Assembly (NCBI RefSeq): GCF_004010195.1
Contig: NC_057718.1
Location: forward strand, 81,229,912-81,293,911
Direction: 5' to 3'
Origin: Chiloscyllium plagiosum
Taxonomy: Eukaryota
DNA: 64,000 nucleotides
Within the stretch, counting starts at the first letter, position 1; each line of letters starts with the position of its first letter. The position numbers and the translations under genes were made by a program. Under the pieces are notes generated by a model. That model did not search any database. It was not told the DNA's origin and saw only the letters and a list, made by a program, of their open reading frames with translations. Shown here piece by piece: positions 13,086-60,160 of this stretch.

Positions 13086-13254
13086 ATGTGAATGGATCTG
13101 TGATTTGATTCTGCTTATAGAAATTTATGACAAAACATTATTCTTGTTTATACTGAGTTTCTAGAATGATTTCTTGATATGATATGATATATGATAGCTG
13201 ATGATCTACAACTGTATTGATATAATACTTTTTGTTTGTTCCTAAATTATCATC

Positions 13255-13726
13255 ATCATAGGAAGGATATATTGAAGGGAATATAATGTAAGTTCATAAG
13301 AATGATACCTGGACTTCAGGGGTTAAGGTGAGGAGAGATTATACAAATTAGGTATGTTTTCTACAGAATTTAAAGGTTAAGTGTTGATCTGATTGAAATC
13401 TTCAAGATATTAACAGGAAAAGGAGGTTGGAGTTTCTAGAACTAGCGGTCACAGTCTGAGAATTAGGGCCAAGATTTTCAAGAGACGTTCATAAGCACCT
13501 CTATACACAAAGGATGGTAGAAGTTTGGAACTCTCTTCCACAAATGAAATCGATGCTGGACCAGTTATTGGTTTTAAATCTGAGATTTTTTTTGGTTAAG
13601 CAAAAGTATTAAGGGAAATTGTCAAAGGCAGGTATATGAAGTTAGGGCAACAATCAGCTATTATCTCATTAAATGGTGGAACAGACTTGAAGGGCTGAAT
13701 GGCCTACTCTTTTCGTACGTCCCTGT
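13255..13726 (+). mobile_element. CR1 LINE 3' fragment
   Basis: Decayed DLIEIFKI and VEVWNSLP motifs, with tail GAAGGGCTGAATGGCCTACT. Confidence 0.75.
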
Positions 13727-13862
13727 AACACAAATGAAATACAATTCACTGTACTGAGGAATTCAATGAACTTTTGTGACAGCATTTGGTATCTACATAT
13801 ATACACTACAGTCACAGACAATTCTGTGTCTGGGCTCAAGTTAAGCTATTTGGATGAACTGT

Positions 13863-14334
13863 GTTAAAAATCACACAACACCAGGTTATAGTCCAACAGG
13901 TTTAATTGGAAGCACACTAGCTTTCGGAGCGATGCTCCTTCATCAGGTGATTGTGGAGGGCTCGATCGTAACACAGAATTTATAGCAAAAATTTGCAGTG
14001 TGATGTAACTGAAATTATACATTGAAGAATTGATTGTCTGTTAAGCCTTTCATCTGTTAGAATACAGTGATAGTTTCACTTCTTTCATGTGTACATCACA
14101 AAACCCTTTTTTGAAAGTTGCATTCTCGGGTTAGCTGTTAACAATGGTGATAGCTAGACAATATGTTGAAGGTGTTAGCCCCCTGTGTTCTCTGTCTATG
14201 ACCTGATGTTTAGATTGATTCTAATCTAAAAAGTGAGATAACAGAGTTTTACATAAATTCATGCAGTCTATAGCCTGGTGTTGTGTGATTTTTAACTTTG
14301 TACACCCCAGTCCAACACCAGCATCTCCGAATCA
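13863..14334 (-). mobile_element. Penelope-like family A non-coding insertion: long minus-strand pLTR, short inverted arm and tail
   Basis: Perfect 12-bp TSD TGGATGAACTGT (13851-13862 and 14335-14346). Inverted ends GTTAAAAATCACACAACACCAGG and CCTGGTGTTGTGTGATTTTTAAC. Homologous to the ends of the coding PLE at 42763-47202. Confidence 0.9.
13915..13949 (-). ncRNA. Minimal type-I hammerhead ribozyme (PLE-associated)
   Basis: The minus strand reads CAC-CUGAUGA-A-GGAGC-AUC-GCUCC-GAA-AGCU-A-GUG: stem I CAC/GUG, intact core, 5-bp stem II, palindromic AGCU in place of stem III, CUA triplet. Confidence 0.8.
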
Positions 14335-16862
14335 TGGATGAACTGTATCATACTTCCCTCTGTGTCGTGCTGCAGGGGGACTCTGTAAAATGGAGGCTGG
14401 GACTTTTATGTCATTCCATCATATGCCATGATGCAGTGATGATATCATTTGAATATCCCTTAAAGTTATATTGCATATTTGCTGTGTGACAAAACAACAA
14501 TTACTCAGTAATTCTGAAAACTTTAACAGCTGGTTGAATGATTATGTGACTGAACCAAACAGGCCAGTTCAAGTTGCATGTAACAAAGAAGGGGTAGAAA
14601 TCTATCCTGCTCATGTATGCATCTACATTTTTTTTAAATGAATCAGATAAAAGATAGTTAGTCTCATAGTAAAACAAACTATGTTTTGTATGGTGCAAAG
14701 CTGATGTTAATAGACTTCTATGAGTGTTGTTATAATTACTTATGTATTAAGAAGACTAAATGTATTCCTATAACACAACAAGAAAGGAGAAGAAATTGAT
14801 TTTGTATTTAGCTTTTCATGTTGTGCTCAAAATGGCAGACAAGTGCAGTTAGGTTTTAATAATCTATTTGCCTGAAAACTCTCAGAACAGAATGATTGAT
14901 TTAGCAGCATGTAGCACCTGTTCTGATTATTTGAAAGATGATTCATGCTCTGTCCTGAATCCCAGCTTTTGTCTATAATCCTATAGATTTCTCTAGTCAC
15001 TGTCTGACTGTTATTCACTAGCCTTTTGCTGGAGATAACAACTTTGAATAATTGGTGCAGTAAAAAAAAGTATCTTCAACTTGAAAATCTTTGTTAGGTC
15101 ACTTCTTAAACATATATGCTCAAAAGAAACAGTACTCAACTTTTCTGCATCACAAAATTGAAGACTCTCATATAAGAACTAAAATGCTAGAAAGACTTAG
15201 TCAGGCAGCATCTGGGGGAATAAATAGAGCCAACTTTCAAGTTGATGACCTTTGAAAGTTTTTTCAGAATTTTTCATGTATATTTCAGGTTTCCAGCATA
15301 TTATTGAAGTCACTCATCCTTTGTAACATCTCCCCACTCTTTCTCAGGTCTTCGTTTTTTTTTCTAAAGCATGCTGCCCAGAATTGTTCCCTGTATTGTT
15401 TCTGAAGCCTAATCTATGATGATTACTTTGCTGCTAAATTTTGTATCTAGTCTCCTTCATTTAGCCACCTTGCAAATCAGCACCCAGTCTGAAAATAATC
15501 CATTGGCATCGCTGCATCTTGACACTGAACAAACACACGAATAGCATCAGTTTTCTTTATTTCTGTAAACTTCCATGGAGTCCTGCTTTTTAGAAGAAAT
15601 TACTTGGCCCTTATCTTGTGTTTATGCTTTTCCTTATAACAGTGGTGAAACAATTAGGGCTGTTTAGGTATAACTAAACAAGTGTAGCAGAATTGACACC
15701 TCCACAGTAAAACACAGTTTGAATATTTCTATGTTGCTGAGCAGCTGCATATTAGAGTGTACCCAGTGAGTAGGTAATTGAACAGCCTGCAAGGTTTGTG
15801 ACTTGTTTTTGTTTTGTTTTAATGTGATTTAGCTGCTTGATAACCCTGTGCAGAGGTTGACAAGTAAGTGGCCTGCAAGTGATTGTTAAAGATTACACAA
15901 TTCAAGTAATTATTTTCTTGTCTTTAAGTGGATTTTAGTGAACATAACCCTCGTCACATTGTGAAATACTTGAACAGATTTTTTCCCATATTCAATTTCC
16001 CTTTTTACTTTGTATAGACTGTAATTGTTTCCTTTTAGTGCCTGTTTTCTCATTTCCTCTCCCGACTGCGTCATTGCTCTTGAGACTGCTTCCTTGGAGG
16101 CTGGTGACATTCTTCCCCCTTTTTCTTCACTGCTTTCCTGCCTTTCTAGAATAGATTTACCTGATAGAATTGAAGAAATTATGGTGAATTCTTTGACATT
16201 CTAACATGCTTTCTGCATGATTTGAGAGGAATTCACCAATGTGAAGTAGAATCATATAGACAAGTAAACTTCCAGGCGTAATTGAATCTGAGCAGACAAC
16301 TCATGTAAAATGAGTTCAGTAAACTGCTGAAATAAATGAAGCAATGACAGATGAAATTTAATAAGGGCAAAAGTAAAGTACTGTATGTAAACGATCCAAG
16401 TTGGTGCCGAAGTGTAGTGACATGATACACTTTTCACTGTACCTGAGTATGTGACAATATTAAATAAATCTAAATCCAAACAGAGGTTGGCAGTGTATAT
16501 TTTTGATGAATAATGAAATATCTGCAGATGAAGTTGAGCAAAATCTCTAGGATTCCGTAAACTCAACTTCCAACTGTCAAAGTTTGACTAATGAAACGAG
16601 TAGAAAGCTAGAGCCAAAGCAGATTCCAACCTGTTCCAGAGGTTTGTCATGAACATGTGAGAACAGGTTACTCAAAAGTATCTGTAAATCGAAGAAATAA
16701 TTGGTATAGGAAAGAACGGTTCCATTTCAAAGTGACACTGACACTAGTTCTAGGATAGAGTGGAGCAGTTTTGCTGGAATGGGGTACTGACAAAAGTTGA
16801 GATGAGAATAAGGAGCCAGTTCAAAGAATAAATAGGCTACGGAAAATTATTTCATACAGCCT

Positions 16863-22310: not shown

Positions 22311-22427
22311 ATTTGGAGGTGCTAGTGTTGGACTGGCATGGACAAAGTTAAAAATCACACAACACCAGCTATTGCTTCCAAATAAACCTGTTGGACTATA
22401 AGCTGGTGTTGTGTGATTTTTAACTTT
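22311..22427 (-). mobile_element. PLE family A mini fold-back element
   Basis: Inverted arms AAAGTTAAAAATCACACAACACCAGCT and AGCTGGTGTTGTGTGATTTTTAACTTT, with the tail on the left. Confidence 0.85.
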
Positions 22428-23479
22428 CAAATGGAACAGTATACACTGGCCTTGTCGTCAGCCAGCTCAGAAATCAGTTCTCAAAACGAACAACAGTAAC
22501 AAACTGACCGTGTCACCAGTAAGTTCAGAGTCCATCCCGAACTGAGAAGCCTCTATTCTCCTGGAATTTTAAAATTATTCTTAGTTTTTTGTTTTTTTTA
22601 GCTCGGAGTTAGTCCTCAACTGAAGAAATTCCAATCTGAATTTTTTTTAGTGGCCCTCTGCCATTCAGCAGTAATGCTCATATTTCTCCTGGTTGGATTG
22701 GTCAGCCAAGGCTTTCCTGTTTGGCCCAGGTTAATAACCCCAATCAAGAGCCTCTTAGTTAACAAAGTCAGTCTGATCTCAATCACTACAGTTACCAAGA
22801 GAGGTGAGACAGAGAATAAAAAGGACTTGTGAACAATGGATCTCTACTGATCTTTGATTGCTGTAAAACCTGTAACAGAACAGAGTGCAACTACATTGTT
22901 AGCAAACATAAAAGGAAATAAGATAAAATATTTATGAAAAATAGCAAGGAGCACACTAAAGTTACTTTAGAAATATTTTAAGTAATGTGGGTAAGCGTAT
23001 GGATGAGAAGCATATTAGTGATTACACTGTGTTGGGTTACACAGCAAACCATTTAGATTTGGAAAGAAAATTATGAAAGGACATTGAGAAATTTAGTGAA
23101 CAAACAGAATTTAACAAATGGAGTGCAATGTAAGGAATCTTGAATTTGTTCAGTGAGGATGCAATAAAGTTAGAGCAGTGCATTTTCCAAATATCAAAAG
23201 CCCAGGCTGATCTCTAATGTCTCAACAATTCAGTTACAATGAAACACTGAAAAAATCTTAATTTTTTTTAACTTGGAAGAAGCAGCTGCAAAGTGACCTT
23301 AAGATGTGTAAAGATGGGAAAAAGATCCATTTCCTATAGAAATGTTATAAAGATGTGGAAAATGAATTTAATCTAAAATGCAAACCTGTTTATACGCTAT
23401 GTAGTAAAAATCAATTTAGTATTGATATCCAAAGATTATTTCTGTTTAACATACAGCTTTAATAATTTTTAAAACTAAT

Positions 23480-26452: not shown

Positions 26453-26610
26453 ATGATGTAGAGGTGCCAGTGTTGGACTGGGTGGACAAAGTTAAAAAAT
26501 AACAACACCAGGTTATAGTCCAACACATTTATGATGAAGGAGCAACACTCTGAAAGCTCGTACTTCCAAATAAACCTGTTGGACTATAACCTGGTGTGTG
26601 ATTTTTAACT
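26453..26610 (-). mobile_element. PLE family A mini fold-back element nested in the hAT transposase
   Basis: Tail plus inverted arms, with TGATGAAGGAGCAACACTCTGAAAGCT hammerhead remnant at 26532-26558. Confidence 0.85.
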
Positions 26611-28309: not shown

Positions 28310-29340
28310 AGTTGCTGAGACATGGAGATTTCAGCATCAGCACTGGATCTATTGCAGTCCTCTACCACTAGGGCAAAGATCTCATCACGTAGGAGGTGGA
28401 GAGATGACTGTCAGAGACCGCACCACTTGTCTTGGCTTGCTCGGCCTTGTTATGGTCTATTTTCCCCTATAGTGAGAGAAAGGAAAGGGTTAAGTGAAAT
28501 GAAAATGGCTGGCTGTTGGAGCTCATGCAGGTTGTGGAAAAGTAGTGAGGTATCCTGAGCAGTTAAACAATGCAGAGGCCGTTCTGATGGAGAGCAAAAC
28601 ACTATTCACTATCTTGTTCTCAGTCACATGTTGTTCAGTTGGCTGAGAACCAATCTCTCAGTTGTTGGCAAGAAAACAAATGCTGCTGTCAGTGATAACT
28701 AGCTGGTCACTAGTCCAGCTGGTCACTAGACCAATTAACTTGTTGCCAGCCAGCTTCATCTATACACCGAAGCCCTCAGCTCCAATTTATCTGCAGTCAC
28801 TTGAATTATCAAGTGTTCAAATTCTGTTTACGCAATGCTTTCCTTAAGTGTCAGGTTACTTGCTCATCAAATATGCAGCAATCCTTTGAAATAATGGTTT
28901 TCAAACAATCCTTGATAATTTCACTTCATAATGTGAAAAAGGCATAAAAGTAAAAATATGTGGCCTTTACATGAGTAAGGAAAGATATTGCGTATAGTTT
29001 TGAGTGTTGAACCATGAGCCTTGGTGCAAGTTGGGTGCAGTAGCAGAGTTACAGGGAGTGTAAGGAAGCAGGAAGAAGATGGTGGTACTTATCCTCAGGA
29101 AGAAAATTGGGAAGATTGTTGGCATTCTAGTGGCATTTCTGAGCATTTTTCTGAACTGTAAAAATGACTCTGTGCTGAGTAGCAACTTCAGATCAGGCTA
29201 GCAGGATCTGTTAGCACAGTGATTTCTAATGATATTGAAGGAAGAGGACAGACTCCATACACCCCCTGTTCACCAGGACCTCCAGGTCCATGTTGGTGAT
29301 TAGGGGTGCCAGTCTGTCCCAGTCCACCGTTTCCAGGGCC
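28310..29340 (-). pseudogene. Harbinger-type Myb/SANT-like DNA-binding protein gene remnant with an intron
   Basis: Exon 1 reads LAPLITNMDLEVLVNRGCMESVLF...QKNAQKCH*NANNL, with a decayed donor (agg|ataagt, ~29092). Acceptor cttaaccctttcctttctctcactatag precedes exon 2 GKIDHNKAEQAKTSG (from ~28467). Confidence 0.6.
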
Positions 29341-29740
29341 AATCCCCAGAAAAAGGGACTGTGCATGGCATGCTAGTCCAGAATGATGGCACATGACTGA
29401 ACGCACAACTTCATTTTGTATATGATACTGACACCAGAGATCCTGCCTGTAGTGAGAGGGAAGAAATGCTGAGCAGGGTGCCATAAAGGCATGATAATGC
29501 AGTCAGTTTTGGAAAATAGCTTGAGAAATCTGATGGCCTCAAAGAGAGAAGCTGCAATGTTTGACCCTAACTGATTTCTGGTTAAATTCAAAAAGGAAAG
29601 GGTTAAGTGAAATGAAAATGGCTGGCTGTTGGAGCTCATGCAGGTTGTGGAAAGGTAGTGAGGTATCCTGAGCAGTTAAACAATGCAGAGGCCGTTCTGA
29701 TGAAGAGCAAAACACTATTCACTATCTTGTTCTCAGTCAC
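28479..29740 (+). repeat. 149-bp direct repeat pair (28479-28627 and 29592-29740)
   Basis: Direct comparison shows 2 substitutions in 149 bp and no indels. Confidence 0.95.
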
Positions 29741-33475: not shown

Positions 33476-34415
33476 TTTTATGGCCAGGCCTGAAAATTGA
33501 TTGCAGGTTGATTCTTGATCAAAATGCTCCATAGATATTGCTGCATTGGAGAAAGCAGTATGTTCAGTCAGATGGAAGACAATTGGCCAGTAATGAAGTT
33601 AATACCAGCATGTCTGGAAGGGAACATGATGGTTAAACAAAAGGTATGGCCAGAGAGTTTGAAATGGTTTTTGTGTTTTAGCATGAAGTTTATCAGCCAT
33701 TGGAAGTTCAGCAAATAAAAACTAGGTTGTAAGTGTTACTGAAGCTTCTTCAGAATGAATTGAAAAGGTGACCCTGATTAATGTCATTATCGGAAAATCA
33801 ACTGAGAAACATTCACACAACACCAGGTTATAGTCTAAATGGTTTAATTGGAAGCACTAGCTTTCAAAGTGCTGTTCCTTCACCAGGTGGTTGTGGACTT
33901 GATGAAGGAGCAGTACCCCGAAAGCTAGTGTTTCCAATTAAACCTGTTGGACTATAACCTGGTGCTGTGTGATTTTTAACTTTGTACACTGGCATCTCCA
34001 AGTCATGAGAAACTATATATATGTCTGGGTATCAACACATTGTGAAAACCACTTCAGTCATTGGCAGCGTTTTTTTTTCTTTATTCTTTTAACTGTGTTT
34101 GTTCGTCTGTCTTTTGTGTGAATGAGGCTGAAAAGAAAGGTTATCAGGTTTAAATCACAGACATCTATTAGATTACTTTGCTATTTAATTTTATTCTGAT
34201 AAAGTTACTGCATTATTAATAGATGTCTTTTGTTTAAATGACCTATCCAGAGTCGAGAATTGATTATTCAAAGTCTGGGACTGGCTCTTCAAAGAGTCTA
34301 ATTAGGAAGCATTGGGGTAAATTTTAAGGGTCTTCAAAGGTTTTAGTTTTCTAGTTTCATGAATACAAAGGATAAGAACGCTCGTTTGATTAGGCTGTCT
34401 GACTCGGTTGTAACA
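33476..34415 (+). mobile_element. Possible decayed solo LTR hosting a PLE insertion
   Basis: Ends with CGGTTGTAACA and has LTR-like composition. The 5' TG and a TSD are not clear. Confidence 0.3.
33811..34005 (+). mobile_element. PLE family A fold-back element with two opposed, decayed hammerhead cores
   Basis: ~75-bp inverted arms, TSD TGAGAAAC (33803-33810 and 34006-34013), TTGATGAAGGAGCAGTACCCCGAAAGCTAGTG at ~33899-33930. Confidence 0.9.
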
Positions 34416-35579: not shown

Positions 35580-38500
35580 TCATGGCAGCAGAGCTTGCAT
35601 TTTTGATATGTTGTTCCTACACAATGTGAGAAGTCATGGACACTTCCTATGTCTCTGGTGACCCTGTGTGCAGGAATTGTGAGAATTGCAGAGACTGGCT
35701 AACTGCATTTCAAAGCTGAAGTTGCAGGTGAACTGACTGTTGAAGCTGAGATTGTTGTGGACAGCATATTCATTGCAGTGGTTAACCTGCAGGAAAAAAA
35801 TTGAATAGGCAGCAAAGGGATGGGTTACCACCAGACAAAGTAAACCAGGTGACCCATGTGGCTCTCCATCTCTCTAAACTATCCTTTTGGATACTTTTGG
35901 GGGAGATAACCTCCTTGGGATAGCAGAGAGAGCCAGAGAAGAAAGAAGAGTACTGGAATTATAATGATAGGGGATTCATTATTAAGTGGAACAGATAGAC
36001 ATTTTTGTAGCTGCAAAAGAGACCTCAGATTAGCATGTTGCATCCTTGGTGTCAAAATCAAAGATGTTTCAGACAGACCATGTAACATTCTGAAGGAGGA
36101 GGGTGAATAGCCAGCGATAATGATACATATTGGTACAGACAAGGCAGGTTTTAAAAAAAGAATGAAGTTCTACAAGCTGGTTGCAGATAAGTAGAATGCA
36201 AGTTTGAAAAGAAGGCCTAAAAGATAGTAAACTAGGGATAAAGTTAAACATCACACAACACTAGGTTATGGCTGAACAGGTTTATTTGGAAGTATAAGCT
36301 TTCAGAACACTGCTCCTTTGTCATAAACCTGTTGCACTCTAACCTGGTGTTGTATGATTTTTAACTTTGTCCACCCCAATCCAATACTGGCATCTCCACA
36401 ATCTGAGGACAGTGCAAGTTACATCTGGACAAGACTGGGACCATGTCCTTGGGGGTTGTTTGATCGTGCTGTCAGAGAGAAATTAAACTGGAATAACAGG
36501 GTTGGAAACCCCTGAACAGTGAGACAGCGTAAGGGAAAGCAAGGATACAAACTTAAGTACAGAAAAGTAAAAAGCAAAAGGCAGAATAAACAAATGGTAC
36601 GAAAATACAAAATAAAGCTAAAATGAATAAGGTTAAGATGATACTTTTGAAGGCTTTATGTTTTAATTTGTGTAGCATTCACAGTAAGAGATTAATTAGC
36701 AACACAAATAGATATAAATGGTTATGATGTAGTTGCGATTACAGAGGCATGGCTGCCAGGTGACCAATGAGAAAAGAATATCCACGGGTTTTCCTTATTT
36801 AGGAAGGATAGACAAAAATGGAAAGGTGGTGGATTTGCATTGTTGGTAAAGGAGTAGTGAGAAGGATATTAGTCTGGGAAATCAGTGTGGCATCTGTATG
36901 GGTGGAAATAAAAATCATTAATGGGTCATAAAACATTGGGTGTTATCTGTAGTCACTGAAAGAGAAGCAGCAATGCAAGGGAAAACATTAAATAGGAGAT
37001 TAGAAATCCATGCATTAAGGGTGCCAATAATCATGGTGACTTTACTTATGACTTGGGCAAACCCATAAACTGTGGAAGAGAATCTCTAGGAGTGTATACA
37101 TTATGAATTTTCTTAAACCGATATGTTGAGGAACAGATGAGAGGTTAAGCTATCCTCGGTTAGGTCTTGTGAATCAAGAAAGCAATAATTACCAGTTTTG
37201 TTATGTATGGTCCGTTGGGGAAGAATGACCAAAATATAATTGAACTTGCTCATTAAGCGAGAGAGTAACGAAGATGAATGCAAAACTAAGGTTCTGAATC
37301 TAAATAAAGGGAACTACAAGGATATGAGGCATAAGTTGGTAATGATCGATTGGGGAACTTAATAAAAGTGTTGGCAGTGGACAGGCAAAGTTTAATATTT
37401 AAGGAACACATGCAAGAATTACAATAGCTATTCATTCCTGTCATTTTCAGAAGTAAAACTTGAAAGATAACTCAACCATGACTTTCAAAAGAAATCAGAG
37501 GTAGTATTAGATCCAAAGAGACAATACGTGAAATTGCCAGAAAAAGCAGCAAGCTTGAGAACTGGGAGCAGTTTAGAATTTGGCAAAAGAGGACCAAAAA
37601 ATTGATCAATTAAGGGGAAGTAGAGTATTAGAGTAAACTTGCAAGGATCATAAACACTGACTAAAAGCCTCTGTAAATCTGCATAGAGAAAAAGATTAAT
37701 GAAGCCCTTACAGTCAGACATGGAAGTAATTATAATGGGGCAGAGGAATTGAACATGCATTTTGTTTCTGTCTTCACAAAAGAGGATGCAAATGAATTCC
37801 CAAAAATGTTAGGGAACGAAGGGTGTACGGAGAGGGAGAAATTGAAGAAAATCAATATTAGTTTAACAAAAAATGCTAGGTGCTCATGCTAAAGATTGAC
37901 ATATCCCCAGGACTTCATAATCTGCATCCCAAAGTATGAAAAGATGTGGCCCTAGAAATATTGGATGTACTGTGGTCATCTTCCAAAATTCTATAGATTC
38001 TGTGCACTTCCAATAGATTAAAGGGTGGTAAATGTAACCATGCTATTTTTTAAAAAAAAAGGGAGAGAAGAAACTAAGAATTTCAGATCAGTTAACCTGA
38101 TGTTAGTAGTGGGAATATTCTAGATATTATAAAACACATGGTAACAGAACATTTAGAACCATTCATGTGAATAGACTAAGTCAATACGGTTTTAACTAAT
38201 CTTATGGAGTCTTTTTTTAAAAAATAGCACGGTAGAACAGATGAGGGAAAAGCAGTGAATGTGGTCCCTTGGATTTCATGGCAGTGTTTGGTAAGGTTCC
38301 CTTCAAGAGGCCAGTGGGCAAAAGTGAAGCACATGGGATTGGGGTAATATGCTGGCATGGATTGAGCATTGGTTGACAGACCAGAGAAACAGAAGAATTT
38401 CTGGATGACAGGCAGTTACTGGTGGGTGTGCACAGAGATTAATACTTGGTTTGCTGATGACACAAAACAAGTTGGGATTGAGAGGAGGCTAAAGGGTGGT

Positions 38501-41800: not shown

Positions 41801-43233
41801 TTGGAAAGTTTTTATCAAAGGAGGCTTCATGCATTGCTACAGTGCACTTTGTATATAATACATACTGCTGCAAATGTGCACTGGTGATTGGGAATGAGGG
41901 TATTAGTGATTGTTTAAGGTTGTGCATGAGGTACTGTTTTCTTGGATGGTGTCACAGTCTTGTGTTGCTGGGGTTGCACTCATCCACATAAGTTCGGAGT
42001 ATTCCATTTTGTTCTTGTAGATGCTGAACAGGCTTTGGAAAGGCAGGATTTATGTTTGCTGCGACAGAATTCACAGTGTCTGACATGATCTTGAAGTATG
42101 TATACGGCTGGTACAGTTCAGTTCTGGTCAATAATCACCACCAGAGTGTTGATAGGAGATTCAGGGACAGTCATGATGTGGATTATCCAGGGAGCCAGTT
42201 AGACTCTGTCTTTGAGGTTGGTTATGGCCAGCATTTGTGTGGTGCAAATGTTACCTTCCATTTCCTTACTGTAGTGCTTTAGTACAACTTAATCTTAGCG
42301 TTAACCACATTGCTGTGTGACTGGAGATAGACGTAAACCAGACTGGGTAAGGAGACATATTTCTTCCCCTAAAAAGACATTAATTTCCATTGGGTTGTTA
42401 TACGATTGATAATTTACTCTTATCCTAGGTTTATTAACTAATTGAATTTAAATTCCCCAGCAACTGTGGTAGGATTTTTGTCGGTATCTCTGTGTCAGTT
42501 CCCCAGGTATGCAGATTACTCATCCAGTAATATTATTGCGATTGTACCAGTACCTCTAGTTATATAGTTATCTAAAAGTATTTCACAAATGAAAATGTAT
42601 AAGCAGCCGAACTGTTGCCTGCCAAATATCCTTACAAATGTGCTCCTTTCTGCTTATGGTGGCTCTGGTTTTGTTTCTTCTGTTGCCCTTACCTATTTGA
42701 TAAACATATTTGTATTTGAGGATGTAACAAGCAGAATGGAGAGAGACAAAAATGTATTTGTAATTAAAAATCACACAACAGTTCTAGTCCAACAGGTTTA
42801 TTTGGAATCACTAGCTTTTGAAGTGCTGCTTCTTCATCAAGTGGTTGTCGAGCAGAATCATAAGACAGAGACTTTATAGCAACAGGATTGCAGTGTCATG
42901 GAACGTAATATTAAACACATTTACCTTAAGTCTTTCATTTTTTAGAATGACCATGTCAGTTTCGGTTCCTTCATATGTAAATTCCAGAACATTTTTAAAG
43001 TTACATTCTCAAAATAGCTTTTAATAATAGGTGTCATCTCAACTCAGATAATTGAAGGTGTGAAGTTAAAGTCTGTCTGTGTCCCAATGTTAGATCAGAC
43101 GTATTTTATTTCTAAAGTGTGAATTACAAAATCTTGCATGGATTTATGCAGTTTTTGAGCAAAATAAAATGTAACTATGCAAGTACAAATTTATCCCACA
43201 AGCTTATGTGTGTGTGAGCATGTGCTGGGGAGA

Positions 43234-43273
<40 letters not shown>

Positions 43274-46164
43274 CTGAGTGTAATGGGTATACGTCTGTGA
43301 GAGAGTGTGTGTGTGAATGAGACAGAGAGAGAGAGAATGGAGTAGTGGGGTCACCTGTTGTGTGACATGAACCCAAGGTCCTGGTTGAGCCCATCCCCAT
43401 GGGTACCAAACCTGACTATCAGCCTCTGCTCGACCAGTTTGCGTTGTTGCCCGACCCGAATTCCTCCTTAGAGGGTGGTCACCCAGAGGTCCGGTGCCAA
43501 ATGTACTGGACCACTGACTGGGAAGGAACACTCCTGCCTGGTGAATGTTGTCCATTGCTGTTGTCTTTGCTCAGTCTTGCTAATGTATTATGCCTCAGGC
43601 ATCCTTGCCTGTAATGTATAAGATAGACAACATTGGCAGAGTCACATGAGTACCTGCCACATACTTGGTGGGTGGTGTCTCCACAAGTAATGGTGGTGTC
43701 TGTCGACATTCTGACATGCCTTGCAGCATCTGCCGTGACAAGATTATATGGTGCTGTCCTGAAAGCAACGCAGTTTGCTGCGAATAATGATCTCTTTAGT
43801 TTGGCGGTTGATTAAAGGCGAGAAGGGGATGCATGTGGAAGGTTCTGCTGAGGTGCTCATCCTCATTGATGATGTGTTGCCTGCGAAGAACATGGTGTAG
43901 GTTTTTGGCTCCTGGGAAGTACTGGACAATGGAAGGTACCCTGTCAGTTGCAGCTCGTGTCTGTCTCCTGAGGCGATCATTATAGTTTCTCACTGTGGCA
44001 CGTCCGAACTAGCGGTCGATGAGTTGAGCATTGTACCCTGTTTTTATGAGAGCATGCTTGAGTACTTCCAAGAATCTGTCATGTTCCTCCTCATCTGAAC
44101 AGATCCTGTGTACACGTAGGGCTTGTCCATAGGGGATGGCTGTATTAATATGTTTAGGGCAGAAACTAGAGAAGTGTAGCATCATGAGGTTATCCGTGGG
44201 TTTACAATACAGTGAGGAGCTGAGGTGCCCATCTTTGATTGAGATGCATGTGTCCAAGAATGAGACAGATACTAAAGAGTCGTCCATGGTGAGCTTGCTG
44301 GTGGAATGAAACTCATTGATATCTCTGTATAGTTGTCTCAGTGACACCTCACCATGGGTCCAGAGGTAGAAAATGTCATCAACATACTTGATATATAGTG
44401 TTGGTTGGAGGTCCTATGTGGAAAAGAAGTCTTGTTCAAACTTGTGCATGAAAATGTTGGCATACTCTGGTACAAATTTGGTCCCCATGGCTGTTCCATG
44501 TGTCTGGATGAAGAATGGTTGTAAAGGTGAATATGTTGGGCTCGAGGATGAAGCAGATGAGTTGTAGGACCATGGCAGTTATTGGTATTGAGTACTGAGG
44601 CTGTTGTCGCGATGCCGTCATTCGTGGGGATGCTGGTGTGAGAGTGCTGAATGTTCCCATTTCGACTGGTCCACGGGTGCTGAGTTTCTGTAAGAAATCT
44701 GTAGTATCGCAACAGAAGCTGGGGGTCCATTGTGCAATGGGTTTCAAGATGCCTTTGACATAGCCAGAGAGATTCTCACACAGGGTCCCCTTGCCTGATA
44801 TGATGGGATATCCTGATGTGTTGGCATTGTGTATCTTTGGAAGGCAGTAGAAGTCACCTACGTGAGAAGTGCATGGGATGAGGGTGTGGTGGGAACTCTG
44901 AAGGACTGGATCCAAAGTCCACATCAATGTCATTAGTTCACAGGTGTGCTCTTTGGTCAGATTGGTAGTTGCCTCTAATGTTCCTGGTTGTTCAGTTGTT
45001 GGTACACTTCCCTGCAGTAGTCCATTCTGTTCTGAATGATGATGGCTCCTCCTTTATCTGCTGGTTTGATGACCATATTGCGATTGATTTTGAGAGCATG
45101 GATGACGTTGCATTGTGATTGGGTGATGTTTTGTTCTACCTTGTGGATGCTGCTGATGAATCTGGCATTTATATATTTCTTGACAGTTTGAGCACACACG
45201 TCAAGCTCAGGTCAGCAGTCCTTCGGTGGGGTCCAAGTTGACTCCTCCTACGGATCCTTGTGATGACTGTTCTGTTTCATTGGTGGAATCACTGCTGGCA
45301 GCTTGACACAATTTCCGGAGGTTCATTCATCTGGTGAATTCCTCCATGTCTGCTGCAAGACCCATGGGGTCCATTTTAGTGGTGGGGCAGTACTCAAGCA
45401 TGCTCTCATAAGAACGAGGTACAACGCTCAACTCATCAACCACTAGTTCTGACATGCCACAATGAGAAACCACAATGACCTCCTCAGGAGACAAACACGA
45501 GCTGAAACTGACAGTCTACCCTTTCATTGCCCAGTACTTCCCGGGAGCCGAGAAACTACACCATGTTTTTCGCAGCCTGCAACACATTATCAATGAAGAT
45601 GAGCACCTCGCCAAAACCTTTCCCACGCTTCCCTTTCTCGCCTTTAAACAACCGCCAAACTTTAAACAGATCATTGTTCGCAGCAAACTGCTTGGCCTTC
45701 AGGACAACACCATATAACCCTGTCACAACAGACGCTGCAAAACATGCCAGTGTGTTGACACGGACACCATCATTACATGTGGGGACACCACCCATGATGT
45801 GTGCGGCAGGTAGTTATGTGACTCTGTCAACGTTGTCTATCTCATATGCTGCAGGCAAGGATGCCTTGAGGCATCATACATTGGCTAGACTGAGCAGAGG
45901 CTAGGGCAATGGGTGAATGGACATTGCACAACAATCACCAGACGGGGTGTTCCCTCCCAGTTGGGGAGCACTTCAGCGGTCCGGTACATTCGGCCTCGGA
46001 CCTTTGGGTGACCATCCTCCAAGGCTGACTTCGGGACAGGCAACAATGCAAAGTGGTCAAGCAGAGGCTGAGATAGGCAAGATTGGTACCCATGGGGATG
46101 GTCTCAACCAGGAACTTGGGTTCATGTCACACTGCAGGTGAGCCCACTGCACTCTTTCTACCAA

Positions 46165-46692
46165 CACACCACGCCCCACACACACATGTTCTCCCCCCCC
46201 CCCCACACACACACACCCCCCACACACACACATGCCCCATATGCTGTCACGCCCATATGTTCTCACGCCCTACACATTGTCTCATATGCCCTCATGCACC
46301 CATCTGCACTCACAACCACACATGCACCCTCTCATACATTCACAAGGCTCACACATGCACCTGCACTCACCTCCTGACCTCTCACCCACACAGGCATCCT
46401 TTCATATGCTCTCAGGCTCCACACATGCTCTCACGTCCCACATACGTTCTCACGCATACACCCGCACTTACATCCACATACACGTACCCTCTCATACACT
46501 CACAAACCCTCACCCACAGTCTCGCGCACACATGCACCCTCTGATATGTTCTCTCTCACTCACTCGCGCACTCTCTCTCGCGCGCACATGCTCACACGCG
46601 CGCACACACGTGCACACATGCTGCCTCTCATGCTCACACACAGGTCTCCCCTGAATGCATGCGCGCATGTATATACACACACACACACACAC
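46165..46692 (+). repeat. Degenerate CA-rich low-complexity tract in the PLE 3' UTR
   Basis: CACA/CTCA-rich array. The counterpart (TG)n/(GA)n tract on the other arm is at ~43206-43335. Confidence 0.9.
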
Positions 46693-47082
46693 GCTTGTGG
46701 GGTACGTTTGTACTTGCAGAATTACATTTTATTTCACTCAAAAGCTGCATAACTCCATGCAAGATTCTGTAACTCATACTTCAGAAATAAAACAAGTCTG
46801 ACCGAACATTGGGACACAGATAGATGTGCATTATCAATGCATTATCTGAGCTTAGAGGCACCTGTTGTTAAGTGCATTATCTGAGCTGAGATGGCACCTA
46901 TCAAAAGCTATCTTGAGATGTAACTTTAAAAAAAGTTCTGGGATTTACATGTGAAGGAACCAAATCTAACATGGTCATTGTAAAAGATGAAAGACTTAAG
47001 CTAAATTTGTTTAATATTACATTTCCATTTCACTGCAATCCTGTTGCTATAAATTCTGTGTCTTGTGCTTCTGCTCCACAAC

Positions 47083-47120
47083 CACCTGATGAAGGAGCAG
47101 CACTTTGAAAGCTAATGATT
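47083..47120 (+). ncRNA. Decayed hammerhead ribozyme in the PLE terminus
   Basis: CAC-CTGATGA-AGGAGCAGCACTTT-GAAAGCTA-ATG. The core is intact, but stems I and II are mutated. Confidence 0.6.
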
Positions 47121-48930
47121 CCAACTAAATCTTTTGGACTATAATCTGGTGTTGTGATTTTTAACTTTGTCCACCCCAGGCCAACACCGGCACCTCCAAA
47201 TCATGTATATGTAGTGTATTTGAATTTCCTAAAGGCTTTTATAAAGTATACACGTAAGTTTACTGCAGAAGATAACAGCTCATTGTGTAACTTAGCAAAT
47301 TAGTGTGGATAGAGGTTGTATACGAGGAAACAGGAAGCAGACTGTAACCAGTAGAGTCCATAGGCGCCAATATTGGGATCTTAATGATCTGCATTAGTAA
47401 CTTGAATTAAGGGGTAACTAATCAGCCAAATTTGCTGATAATTCAAAGCATGGTAAGGAAAGCAAGTGAGGATACAAAAGCATATAGACAAATTAGGTGA
47501 GTTAGCAAACATTTGACAGATTATAATGTGAGGAAATGTAAAATTGTTCACCTTGTTTAAAGTATTATTTAAGAGGTGAGTGGCTGCAGAATACTGCAGT
47601 ACAGAGGAATCTGAATTTCCATGTGCTTGAATCAGTAAAGGTTAGCCTACAAGTGTGGCAAGTAATTGAGGTTTGTAATCTGTATTGCATAGGGAAAGGA
47701 GTATAAAAGAATGAAACGTTGGTAGAATTGCTTAGGACATTGGTGAGACTGCATTTGGAGTACTATGTATAATTTTCATCATTTCAGATAAGGACAGAAT
47801 ATACTTGCATTGGAAGCGGTTCAGAGAAGGTACTGTAACTGATTCCTGGCTTTTCTTTTGAGAAACTGTTCAGCAGATTGGGCCAATATTCATCAAGAAT
47901 TTAGAAGAATGAGAGGTAATATTATTTAAACAAAGAAGATTCTGAGAAGGCTTGACAAAATGAAATACTGAGAGGATGTTTGCACTAATGAGTGAATCTA
48001 CAACTAAGAAGCACTGTTTAAAAACAATGTATGTCTCATTTACTACAGATATTAGATGAAATTTCTTCTCTCAGCGGGTTGTTAATCTCTGGTTTTCTCT
48101 TCCACAGACAGTAGTAGAATGTGAAACTATGCTAAAGGACTGTGTTGGACAGATTTTTGATCGACAAGTTGAGCAAACAGGAAAATGGAGTTAAGGCGAC
48201 AATCCAATCAGCCATGATCTCATTGAATGGTAGAGCAGACTTAGGGGGTTGAATGGCCTATTACTGGGCCTTCTATTATGGTCTTGTAATGTTATCTGCC
48301 AATGGTATGCAGTTAGTCACATTTACTGTATTATGTAAATCTATTTGGCAGATATTTTTCTTTATTAAGAATGGGCTTGTGTTTGGGCTTATAAAATTTC
48401 TTGGAATTTACGCATTTTTTGATCCATGTTCTGAATGTATTCTAATTGATTTAAAGATGGGGAAACTTTCAGAATTTCATGTCCAGTCTGATGATTGTCT
48501 TCTTTCCTGCAAAGAATGAGTCTCAAAGATATGTCACTGAAAATATCTTGTAATTCTAACCAACCCCTCATGGTAGCTTCCCATTGGGATAAGGAACTCT
48601 CTTTTTTCATCTCCCTGTGCCAACTGGCAGTTCAACTCAAAGCATATCTTCAATTGCCTCTATTATTTGGATAGTAAATATCAGGAAAATTAAGTTCCAG
48701 GATGATGTGTTGAGGTTGTAGCTAATGATGATACAGATTAACTCTATTTATTATTGCTCTTTATTTAATATATTTTATTTCTCTCAGGTTTGTTTGGTTA
48801 ATTTAAACCTGATGGTATTTTGATTTTTAAGTATTCTGTGTTTCTTTTGAAGACCAAATGAAGCATAAATTTGCCTGTCTCAGTTCATGTGTTATTGTGT
48901 AACAATTTTTTGTGCCAGGATCGGTTGGTT

Positions 48931-49563
48931 ATAGATAGTTATAGAGATGTACAGCATGGAAACAGACCCTTCGGTCCAACCCATCCATGTCGAACAGATA
49001 TCCCAACCCAATCTAGTCCCACTTGCCAGCACCCGGCCCATATCTCTCCAAACCCTTCCTATTCATATACCCACCTAAATGCCTTTTAAATGTTGCAATT
49101 GTACCAGCCTCCACCACATCCTCTGGCAGCTCATTCCATACACGTACCACCCTCTGCGTGAAAATGTTGCCCCTTAGGTCTCTTTTATATCTTTGCCCTC
49201 TCACCCTAAACCTATGCCCTCTAGTTCTGGACTCCCCGACCCCAGGGAAAAGACTTTGTCTATTTATCCTATCCATGCCCCTCATAATTTTGTAAACCTC
49301 TATAAGGTCACCCCTCAGCCTCTGACGCTCCAGGGAAAAGAGCCCCAGCCTGTTCAGCCTCTCCCTGTAGCTCAGATCCTCCAACCCTGGCAACATCCTT
49401 GTAAATCTTTTCTGAACCCTTTCAAGTTTCACAACATCTTTCTGATAGGAAGGAGACCAGAATTGCACGCAATATTCCAACAGTGGCCTAACCAATGTCC
49501 TGTAGAGCCGCAACATGACCTCCCAACTCCTGTACTCCATACTCTGACCAATAAAGGAAAGCA
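48931..49563 (-). mobile_element. Young 5'-truncated CR1 3' fragment
   Basis: Open 183-aa ORF2 C-terminus (LYRTLVRPLLEYCVQFWSP...VWNELP). Very similar to 56260-56873. Possible TSD TGGTT. Confidence 0.95.
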
Positions 49564-49599
49564 TGGTTGCTCCATCTTTTCTAAAACCTCCAACAGATT

Positions 49600-50861: not shown

Positions 50862-51430
50862 GTTATACAGCACGGAAACAGACCCTTCAGTCCAATGTGT
50901 TTGCACCAACCAGGTATCTTAAGCTGATTTCATCCCATTTGCTAGAATATGGCCCATATCACTCTAAAACCTTTCTTTTCAGATATCTATCCAGATGGCT
51001 TTTAAATGTTGTAATTGTACCCGCCACCAACACCACAGCCCTTTCCATACACATTCCACTCTCTGTGAAAATGTTGCCCCTCTGGTCCCTTTTAAATCTT
51101 TCCCCTCTCACCTTAATCTGTACCCTTAACCTATCCTTGAGTTTTGGACTCCCTTTACCCTGGAAAAAAGACCTTAGCTATTCACCTTATATATGCCTGT
51201 CATGATTTTATAAACCTCTATAAGGTCTTCCCTCAGCCTGTGATCTTCCAGGGGCAAAAAACAGCATGTTCAGCCTTTCCCTTTAGCTCAAACTCTCCAA
51301 TCCTGACACCATCCTTGCAAATCTTTTCTGAAGCCTCTCAAATTTAACAACGTCTTTCCGATGGTAGGGAGACCAGATTGAATTCTAAAAGTGGCCTCAC
51401 CAATGTCCTTTAAAGCTGCAACATGACTCT
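50862..51430 (-). mobile_element. CR1 3' fragment
   Basis: Diverged homolog of 48931-49563. Confidence 0.85.
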
Positions 51431-53587: not shown

Positions 53588-56500
53588 GGATTCTGGGTAA
53601 TCCAAGATAGAGGACGGGAAAAGTTTCTGGCTGTAACAGTTGCTCCTTTTTTTGAGGTATTTTAGGTGCTGGAGGTGATTTCCTCGAATTCCAGGAGCAG
53701 CAATTACTGTTTTATATGCTGTTGCATTGTTTTGGAACTTTGGAAAAAAAGAGTCAAAACAACAGCAGTTTTAAAAGGGAGAAGAACAGACAAAGGAAGC
53801 ACATGGTCAGGTGAGGTCAGTGCAGGAGAGAAAGAAAGAAAGAAACTGACACAGCCTTTGCTGTTTGAATTCGTGTATTGCTGGACATCAGAGTACATCT
53901 GGGAAAATTAACAAACAGTGAAATTCACAACTGATTTTGGAGGAACTGTTGGGTGAAGTTCACAACACAGAAGCAGATTAGTGTATTGTTGTTTTAAGTG
54001 TGACCTACAGAAAGTTTGTAGTAGAGTAGAGTGTGTTCTTTCTTGATTGTATGTTTTTGGAGATATGTGTCTTGATTAAACTTAAAATATAAGCCATAAC
54101 TATTCATTTAACCTGGTGCAGTGTTTGTAGAGGAATAAGCCGATGTTATTTTCTGGGTCTGTAGATTGTGAAGAAGCAAAAATGGCCTTTAGTAGAGTGA
54201 TATGTACTTGTCTGATGTGGGAGTTAAAGAGAGTTTAAGGGTTACTGCGGATTATATCTGCCATAAATGCTGTTGGTTGCCAATCTTATCAGATCGAATG
54301 GATCATTGGAGAGACAGTTAGAAACAATGAGGAATTTGCAACAGCAACAGTATTTGATGGATGGCAGTTATAGGAAGGGGGGGAAGGTCTCAGATACAGT
54401 CACATAGATGGGTTAACTCCAGGAAGGGTAAGAGAGGTAGGCAGCTAGTGCAGGAGTCTTTTGTGGCTATACCAATTTCAAACAAGTATGTTGTTTTGGA
54501 AAATGTAGGGGATGATGGATTCTCAGGGGAGCGTAGCACGAACAGCCAAGTTTCTGGTATTGAGACTGGCTTTAATGCAACGAGGGGTACGTTGAGTTCC
54601 AAGAGGTCAGTTGTGTTAGGGGATTCTCTAATCTGAGGTATAGACGGACGTTTCTGTGGCCAGCAGCGAAAAAGTATAATGGTGTGTAGCTTCCCTGGTG
54701 CCAGGATCAAGGATGTCTCAGAGAGGGTGCAGAATGTTCTTACAGGGGAGAGGAGCCAGCAAGAGGTCATTGTCCACATTGGAACCAACGACATAGGAAG
54801 GAAAAAGGTTGAGAGTCTGAAGGGAGATTACAGAGAGTTAGGCAGGAATTTAAAAAAGGAGGTCCTCGAGAGTAGTAATGTCTGGATTACTCCCAGTGCT
54901 ACGAACTATTGAGGGCAGGAATAGGAGGATCGAGCAGATGAATGCATGGCTGAGGAGCTGGTATCTGGGAGAAGGATTCACATTTTTGGATTAATGAATC
55001 TCTTTTGGGGTAGAAGTGACCTGTACAAGAAGGACGGATTGCACCTAAATTGGAAGGGGACTAATATACTGGCAGGGACATTAGCTAGAGCTGTTCGGGA
55101 GGATTTAAACTAGTAAGGTGGGGGGAGGGGGGTTTGGTGGTGGGACCCAGGGAGATTGTGAGGAAAGAAATCAATCTGAGACCGGTACAATTGAGAACAG
55201 AAGTGAGTCAAACAGTCAGGGCAAGCAGGGACAAGGTAGGACTAATAAATTATACTGCATTTATTTCAATGCAAGGGGTCAAACAGGGAAGGCAGATGAA
55301 CCCATGACACAGTTAGGAACATGGACTGGGATATCATAGCAATTACAGAAACATGGCTCAGGGATGGGCAGGACTGACAGCTTAATGTTCCAGGATACAA
55401 ATGCTCCAGGAAGGGTAGAAAGGGAGGCAAGAGAGGAGAGGGAGTGGCATTTTTGGTAAGGGATAGCGTTGCAGCTATGTTGAAGGAGGATATTCCTGAA
55501 AATACATCCAGGGAAGTTATTTGGATGCAGCTGAGAAATAAGAAAGGGATGATCACCTTATTGGGATTGTATTATAGACCCCCCAATAGTCAGAGGGAAA
55601 TTGAGAATAATAGGGTGATTATGGTAGGGGATTTTAACTTTCCAAACATAGACTGGGACTGCCATAGTGTTAAGTGTTTAGATGGAGAGGAATTTGTCAA
55701 GTGTGTACAAGAAAATTTTCTGATTCAGTATGTGGATGTACCTACAAGAGAAGGTGATAACTTGACCTACTTGGGCAGGTAACTGAGGTGTCAGTTGGGG
55801 AGCACTTTGGGGCCAGCGACCATAATTCTATTCGGTTTAAAATAGCGATGGAAAAGGTTGTTTTTCAGACTGGAGGCCTGTGACCAGTGGGGTGCCACAA
55901 GGATCGGTGCTGGGTCCTCTACGTTTTGTCATTTATATAAATGATTTGGATGCGAGCATAAGAGGTACAGTTAATAAGTTTGCAGATGATACCAAAATTG
56001 GAGGTGTAGTGGACAGCGAAGAGGGTTACCTAGTATTACAAAAGGTTCTTGACCAGATGGGCCAATGGGCTGAGAAATGGCAGATGGAGTTTAATTCGGT
56101 TAAATGCGAGGTGCTGCATTTTGGGAAAGCAAGTCTTAGCAGGACATATACACTTAATGGTAAGGTCCTAGGAAGTGTTGCTGAACAAAGAGTGCAGGTT
56201 CATAGCTCCTTGAAAGTGGAGTCGCAGGTAGATAAGATAGTGAAGAAGGTGTTTGGTATGCTTTCCTTTATTGGTCAGAGTATTGAGTACAGGAGTTGGG
56301 AGGTCATGTTGCGACTTTACAGGACATTGGTTAGGCCACTGTTGCAATATTGCGTACAATTCTGGTCTCCTTCTTATTGGAAAGATGTTGTGAAACTTGA
56401 AAGGGTTCGAAAAGATTTACAAGGATGTTGCCAAGGTTGGAGGATCTGAGCTACAGGGAGAGGCTGAACAGGCTGGGGCTGTTTTCCCTGGAGCGTTGGA

Positions 56501-56873
56501 GGTTTAGGGGTGACCTTATAGAGGTTTACAAAATTGAGGGGCATGGATAGGGTAAATAGACAAAGTCTTTTCCCTGGGGTCGGGGAATCCAGAACTAGAG
56601 TGCACAGGTTTAGGGTGAGCGGGGAAAGATATAAAACAGACCTAAGGGGCAACTTTTTCACGCAGAGGGTGGTACGTTTATGGAATGAGCTGCCAGAGGA
56701 AATGGTGAATGCTGGTACAATTGCAATATTTAAAAGGCATTTGAATGGGTATATGAATAGGAAGGGTTTGGAGGGATATGGGCCAGGTGCTGGCAGGTGG
56801 GATGAGATTGGGTTGGGATGTCTGTTCAGCATGGACAGGGTCTGTTTCCGAGCTGTATATCTCTCTGACTCTA
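53588..56873 (+). mobile_element. Younger CR1 LINE, 5'-complete, with ORF1 (Zn finger + SGNH esterase) and an internally deleted ORF2
   Basis: 5' UTR, ORF1 from 54181 (MAFSRVICTCLMWE; VVLGDSL; VIVHIGTND), APE endonuclease (IAITETWL, YYRPP, GDFNFP, SDHN), RT (GVPQGSVLGP, YINDLD, KFADDTK) and a GACTCTA tail. Confidence 0.95.
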
Positions 56874-59898: not shown

Positions 59899-60160
59899 TT
59901 GTTGTGGTTCTGTTCGCCGAGCTGGGAATTTGTGTTGCAGACATTTCGTCCCCTATCTAGGTGACATCCTCAGTGCTTGGGAGCCTCCTGTGAAGCGCTT
60001 CTGTGCTGTTTGTGATCACAGAAGCGCATCACAGGAGGCTCCCAAGCACTGAAGATGTCACCTAGACAGGGGACGAAACGTCTGCAACACAAATTCCCAG
60101 CCCGACGAACAGAACCCAACAACGAGCACCCGAGCTACAAATCTTCTCCCAAACTTTGAA
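59899..60160. mobile_element. PLE family C fold-back element (~106-bp inverted arms, 11-nt loop, 38-nt tail)
   Basis: Arms 59899-60005 and 60017-60122 are near-perfect complements. The unpaired tail is 60123-60160. Confidence 0.9.
60046..60085 (+). ncRNA. Minimal type-I hammerhead ribozyme
   Basis: GCA-CUGAAGA-U-GUCACC-UAGACA-GGGGAC-GAA-ACGU-C-UGC: stem I GCA/UGC, palindromic ACGU, GUC triplet. The mirror copy on the minus strand (59937-59976) reads GAAAUGUC. Confidence 0.85.

Follow-up and report, generated by a model that had tools for sequence, protein, structure and literature searches.

A minimal hammerhead motif in the pLTR of a solo, truncated PLE insertion of the shark Chiloscyllium plagiosum

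Introduction

Minimal hammerheads (min-HHRs) have been described in Neptune, Poseidon and Xena PLEs of fishes, mostly as solo copies in truncated PLEs; a single min-HHR showed no detectable cleavage, and dimers and trimers cleaved little (PMC4209133). The hammerhead of PAc, a Poseidon PLE of the green anole, cleaves only in the presence of the element protein, with rescue at C3/G8, and insertion in vitro does not depend on it (PMC11167929). Neptune and Poseidon are the only PLEs reported from the vertebrates sampled in bioRxiv 10.64898/2026.07.22.740005, and a Neptune element is recognized by an RT followed by a CX2-5CxxC linker and, at the C terminus, GIY-YIG (PMC8557442).

The motif described here lies on the minus strand at 13949-13915 of the window, the whole 64-kb stretch of C. 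plagiosum DNA that was analysed. It shares with the published min-HHR the core, the additional nucleotide that separates positions 9 and 10.1, the G10.1-C11.1 pair, a palindromic 15.2-16.2, the lack of helix III, the pLTR site and its solo occurrence (PMC4209133). Helices I and II are 3 and 5 bp in the shark, whereas they are 4-5 and 7-8 bp in Schistosoma and 2-5 and 6-8 bp in the examples overall (PMC4209133). The accessible part of that survey reports fishes and does not name sharks; the shark motif may already be listed in the supplements or figures of PMC4209133 or PMC11167929.

The insertion that carries the motif resembles those of endonuclease-bearing PLEs in its truncated inverted piece beside a direct piece, its one-sided tail of 30-40 bp, its target-site duplication (TSD) and its empty-site logic (PMC3846280, PMC8557442). 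It differs in that the TSD is 12 bp, against approximately 8-10 bp in rotifers, and in that its direct piece, of no more than 67 bp, lacks a hammerhead. PAc likewise has a pLTR hammerhead and a tail, the latter defined in PAc by RT start sites, but it belongs to another clade, has no Cys-linker, starts its ORF in helix II and has measured activity, whereas the shark copy is known from sequence (PMC11167929). The AUG within the core of the shark hammerhead meets a stop six codons on. Non-LTR retrozymes are also non-coding and carry a type-I hammerhead of PLE origin; however, they form tandem arrays whose units each hold a ribozyme, whereas the shark insertion is a solo inverted stub (bioRxiv 10.64898/2026.07.22.740005). 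Two or more tandem units, each with a hammerhead, were not found at 13863-14334. Judged by the features compared, the 13949-13915 motif is a PLE min-HHR with a predicted cut site, and belongs neither with the canonical hammerheads nor with the retrozyme arrays.

Results and Discussion

Read directly, the minus strand at 13949-13915 forms a minimal type-I hammerhead with an intact core. Helix I (13949-13947 with 13917-13915; 3 bp) is followed by the intact CUGAUGA core (13946-13940) and by an extra A (13939) between positions 9 and 10.1. Helix II (13938-13934 with 13930-13926; 5 bp) encloses a 3-nt AUC loop, and its G 13938 and C 13926 make up the G10.1-C11.1 pair. The GAA (13925-13923) precedes the AGCU palindrome (13922-13919), which replaces the absent helix III as the palindromic 15.2-16.2. 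A17 lies at 13918, which makes CUA the NUH triplet and puts the predicted cut between 13918 and 13917. The catalytic positions C3-A9, G12-A14, A15.1, U16.1 and H17 are all present. The first-pass annotation of this DNA had proposed an intact minimal hammerhead with an AGCU palindrome and a CUA triplet, and the minus-strand letters agree with it exactly; its cut site was reproduced from the position of A17.

The full descriptor (core, paired helices I and II, and palindrome) matched once in the 64-kb window and in none of 200 order-3 Markov simulations, and a 30-letter pattern allowing up to three mismatches matched twice, compared to zero matches in 100 shuffles. The hammerhead is more than a product of chance. 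The features of a canonical type-I hammerhead (a helix III with a loop and a 6-bp helix I) were absent, and no Rfam hammerhead model matched; among the 17 Rfam matches up to E = 10 there was no hammerhead family, which fits a hammerhead that lacks helix III. The best Rfam matches were palindromes scored by miRNA models, far below their gathering scores, and were rejected.

In hammerhead geometry, closing helix III at this site would require the A15.1-U16.1 pair to form around two nucleotides. Since that pair would enclose only these two, a monomer cannot close helix III. Dimer cleavage of PLE hammerheads has reportedly been described by Lunse et al. The earlier assignment of the motif to the minimal PLE hammerheads, which complete helix III only as a dimer, was supported. 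The computed double hammerhead lay 3.5 kcal/mol above two monomers. The probability of helix II was 0.98 with 5 nt of upstream context, 0.01-0.09 with 15-150 nt and 0.56 with 300 nt; because it recovered at 300 nt and was high at 5 nt, folding argues only weakly against activity. An engineered tandem dimer of the 13949-13915 motif might still cleave slowly in vitro.

Six composite insertions of the family were delimited in the window: the 13863-14334 copy and those at approximately 22311-22430, 26453-26610, 33807-34005, 36240-36403 and 42764-47204. The last is an older, longer inverted copy of a related subfamily that retains a broken RT, the Cys-linker and GIY-YIG, and it gives the clade of the family; it is 4.4 kb long, contains a CA-rich spacer and is flanked by an 11-bp TSD whose copies differ by one mismatch. 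The 13863-14267 piece is collinear with 46745-47165, the 3' end of this longer copy with its RT and GIY-YIG remnants, at 73% identity over 279 columns, and this collinearity places the hammerhead in the pLTR of a PLE. Among 159 candidate proteins, 27 were relatives of the RT fragment of 42764-47204; all of those named to species were from sharks, and the closest were shark proteins with 76-77% identity. Two of these relatives (P0005 and P0008) carry the RT, a CX4CxxC linker and GIY-YIG. The order of RT, CX2-5CxxC linker and C-terminal GIY-YIG was thus found in 42764-47204 and in these two proteins, but not in the non-coding 472-bp stub. By this linker and domain criterion, rather than by an RT tree, the family is classed as a Neptune-type PLE.

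All six of the other hammerhead-bearing family copies in the window are decayed: letters of the core or pairs of helix II are gone, mainly at the two CpGs inside the hammerhead. One of these CpGs is altered in six of the six copies and the other in five. The other minus-strand copies lie 20-29 kb away, and their hammerheads are damaged at A6 (33890), at several places in the core (36320) and at C3 and G12 (42810). No intact hammerhead partner on the same strand was present within the 64-kb window. A palindromic insertion of a second family (59917-60105) has a hammerhead-like half on each strand. Its plus-strand half (60049-60082) has an intact core, an ACGU palindrome and a GCA/UGC helix I, and in its minus-strand half the ACGU is altered. 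The ACGU motif cannot partner the AGCU motif.

The insertion in the host is 472 bp (13863-14334) and is flanked by identical 12-mers. The 12-mer of the left TSD copy (13851-13862) occurs once in organisms B and C, whose allele is empty, and the right copy (14335-14346) is identical to it at 12 of 12 letters, which together with the empty sites confirms the perfect 12-bp TSD claimed in the first-pass annotation. The 13863-14267 piece, with its sense on the minus strand, is the inverted and 5'-truncated 3' end of a PLE, made up of 3' untranslated sequence and the pLTR. It is joined to a plus-strand direct piece (14268-14334) of 67 bp without a hammerhead, consisting of a 29-bp arm (14268-14296) that mirrors 13891-13863 with 28 of 29 letters identical, and a 38-bp tail (14297-14334) found at this end only. 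PLE tails of 30-40 bp have been described (PMC8557442, PMC11167929). Inversion with 5' truncation, a one-sided tail in this size range and a TSD with an empty site were therefore all present at 13851-14346. When contigs and reads were aligned to the element, the family sequence diverged from that of this copy beyond 14267. The junction at 14267/14268 is blunt, and the direct piece begins at the equivalent of 13891, 2-5 nt before the family poly(A) sites. The three clearest TSDs of the family (14335, 34006 and 47203) begin with TG or ATG, letters that would extend the end of the tail; these three cases hint at short microhomology or at a target preference. CpGs are retained in the element, as had been noted before, with six present and an observed/expected ratio of 0.35 compared to 0.23 for the window.

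The age of the insertion was assessed by comparing 4 of 24 listed runs with 13200-15000, namely DNA contigs of organisms A, B and C and the RNA run X21. Two contigs, X10 record 3 from organism B and X11 record 10 from organism C, each join 13850 directly to 14335, so that an empty site with a single copy of the 12-mer was found in both of the other species compared. The flanks of these contigs differ from the window at 25 of 838 letters (3.0%) in organism B and 28 of 837 (3.3%) in organism C. The empty site in two related species indicates that the insertion is lineage-specific. The element was matched by 71,663, 86,304 and 59,102 contig records in the three species, and the family is plentiful in all of them; summed contig depth was not taken as a copy number. 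X7 records 15 and 21 suggest that the insertion is also present in a second individual of organism A, but they reach only 22 and 25 letters into the element, short of the 31 letters required, and were not counted as evidence of presence.

The 472-bp copy departs from the family majority at no fewer than five places. At 13995, 14027 and 14329 the share of depth without the majority letter falls from 23, 21 and 25% in organism A to 9, 0.2 and 2% in organism C, as expected for alleles of a subfamily that expanded in the lineage of organism A. The C at 14094 is private to this copy (0.06% of family depth), and 14273 differs between the two arms of the insertion. The CpG at 14328-14329 was rejected as a private mutation, as its G is a minority family allele. 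At the shark mutation rate of 7e-10 per base per generation (PMC10587355), one to five changes in 472 bp correspond to 3-15 million generations, a rough figure that uses a minimum count of private changes. The copy is therefore young relative to its kin, though not necessarily recent in years: the youth proposed in the first-pass annotation holds in the relative sense, given the empty sites in both other species, but not as an absolute age.

Expression was assessed in X21, a single-cell poly(A) run sampled at approximately 2 in 100, in which 3486 reads fell on the element region and 81 of these were at least 99% alike. No reads covered 14359-15000 or the non-repeat bins of the left flank; of the 451 reads at 14094, 450 carried the family letter rather than that of this copy. 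There is nothing in favour of expression of the 472-bp copy, and one run cannot prove its silence; at this sampling and with 81 of 3486 reads so closely alike, low-level RNA from the locus may occur elsewhere or in another tissue.

The family reads in X21 mark where sense RNAs end. A variant poly(A) signal, AUUAAA, lies on the minus strand at 13901-13906, 11 nt past the predicted cut, and is AAUAAA in several other copies. Among the loose ends listed, poly(T) ends were carried by 483 reads at 13886 and 399 at 13889, two family-level minus-strand addition sites that are ambiguous by a templated A. The site at 13889 is 12 nt past AUUAAA and 29 nt past the predicted cut, and that at 13886 is 15 nt past AUUAAA and 32 nt past the cut. 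The DNA downstream of both is GU/U-rich and not A-rich. From this one run we infer that sense RNAs of other family copies are truly polyadenylated there. Polyadenylated family reads continue across the predicted cut, with adjoining bins at depths of 1076 and 834, and no pile-up of read ends is listed there; the tailed RNAs that were seen thus look uncut. No cleaved fraction can be derived, because short cut products were probably lost in a poly(A) library. The 152 RNA loose ends behind 13915 were rejected as cleavage ends because they belong to family reads without the 2-nt insertion of this subfamily. In a further 224 reads, one foreign sequence gives way to the family at 13958, which is 9 nt upstream of the hammerhead; it looks as though a single host transcript ended in a family stub and used its poly(A) signal. 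Poly(A) sites 29-32 nt behind a PLE hammerhead cut were not found in the full-text literature covered or in the accessible parts of PMC2377424, PMC3846280 and PMC8557442, a coverage outside which most subscription papers lie.

A motif scan returned two matches (L001 and L002) in metagenome contigs and none in genome or viral contigs. Both come from marine metagenomes, repeat the shark 35-mer apart from loop II, have a helix I of 5 bp and lie inside a PLE with an RT and the Cys-linker/GIY-YIG. Their DNA could not be aligned to the shark element outside the hammerhead. The catalytic positions and the palindrome are identical between shark and L001/L002, with loop II varying, and the recurrence of one motif in otherwise unalignable PLEs indicates selection on it at family level. 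Both contigs also carry AAUAAA shortly after the hammerhead. Although labelled as metagenome they hold a PLE of animal type, and probably derive, as host or by-catch DNA, from a marine animal unrelated to the shark.

Taken as a whole, these data are very probably best explained by a pLTR hammerhead that one recent, partnerless and silent copy has inherited from its family. Every copy of the Neptune-type family would inherit the hammerhead in its pseudo-LTR, and selection would act on it in active source elements and not at the 13863-14334 locus. A source RNA may have been reverse-transcribed at a nick made by the GIY-YIG endonuclease of the element, as the literature on the enzymology suggests, and would have been inserted in two parts, a short tail piece and a truncated 3' end in inverted orientation, with duplication of the 12-bp target, the anatomy seen here. 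In a double hammerhead, two AGCU tetramers would form helix III and helix I would be swapped between the partners; such dimer cleavage would probably be protein-assisted and take place in tandem source RNAs. The hammerhead of the 472-bp copy is intact because the copy is recent; with no partner and no sign of transcription, the copy is most likely a silent passenger in neutral decay. The earlier suggestion that it may still be active was not supported, in view of its solo state, the damaged partners 20-29 kb away, the lack of locus RNA in X21, and the published inactivity of solo min-HHRs and weakness of dimers. As it stands the copy adds a further solo min-HHR, from a shark PLE that is abundant, to a kind known in metazoan PLEs, and matters little; being clean and lineage-specific, and having its empty site proven, it offers a convenient natural sequence for the question of PLE hammerhead function.

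The 35-mer could instead be kept mainly for a role other than cleavage, such as a transcription start, an RT stop or a protein-binding element of the pLTR, and never cut in vivo even in active elements. Catalytic mutants of the anole element insert normally in vitro and no RNA-seq ends fall at its cut (PMC11167929), PLE clades without hammerheads spread well (PMC8557442), and the polyadenylated shark reads cross the cut site. However, a role of this kind sits poorly with catalytic positions and a palindrome that are identical in the PLE of an unrelated animal while loop II varies, and the anole motif does cleave with its protein (PMC11167929). We consider this reading unlikely, and it does not conflict with the silence of the 472-bp copy.

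It is more doubtful still that a minus-strand host or read-through transcript ends at the poly(A) signal of the stub and is cut, in trans or by PLE protein, 29-32 nt before its tail, so that its RNA level is lowered. The core at 13949-13915 is intact, family RNAs are polyadenylated at 13889/13886, 224 reads run from foreign sequence into the family at 13958, and a family this abundant means that trans partners exist. Yet in X21 the unique flanks are free of reads, and the 14094 letter of this copy occurs in at most 1 of 451. No host-gene domain exceeded the Pfam cut-off in any of the 445 ORFs of at least 50 aa, a scan that could miss short exons and in which only LINE RT and endonuclease passed. 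A trans dimer would be held by only 3+4+3 bp and scores worse than the monomers, and no pile-up of RNA ends is listed at the cut.

The less familiar point is that family RNAs are polyadenylated approximately 30 nt after the predicted cut, with a signal that is also present in the PLE of an unrelated marine animal. Cleavage at this position would part a PLE RNA from its tail or release a downstream tandem unit. A conjecture with a slim chance of being right is that the pLTR is a conserved module of hammerhead and poly(A) signal, whose dispersed stubs would give host transcripts their 3' ends and whose intact cores would be predicted to cut off the tail via family RNAs in trans or PLE protein. 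PLE activity would then be a genome-wide switch on host RNA stability. The use of the poly(A) sites was observed at the family level in one run, and cleavage and any role of the 472-bp copy are hypothetical.

Finally, a non-LTR retrozyme unit, or an independently mobile non-autonomous 472-bp family spreading via circular RNA, is hardly credible, for although the retrozymes of animals descend from PLE pLTRs and have been reported in a chondrichthyan (bioRxiv 10.64898/2026.07.22.740005), the site has one hammerhead and no tandem array, inversion points differ among copies with many different joints in the contigs, and a PLE that bears ORFs has a 3' end collinear with the 472-bp sequence.

The remainder of the window holds other repeats. 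Weak Pfam matches to IL12, TSP1 and a glycosyltransferase fell below the cut-off and were rejected. LINE remnants occur at 48937-49564, 50864-51427 and 54600-56870, with RT and endonuclease Pfam matches at 55378-56446, and 48937-49564 forms an inverted 628-bp pair with 56870-56258 at 90% identity. A 149-bp direct repeat (28479-28627 and 29592-29740) has copies that lie 1.1 kb apart and are 98.7% identical.
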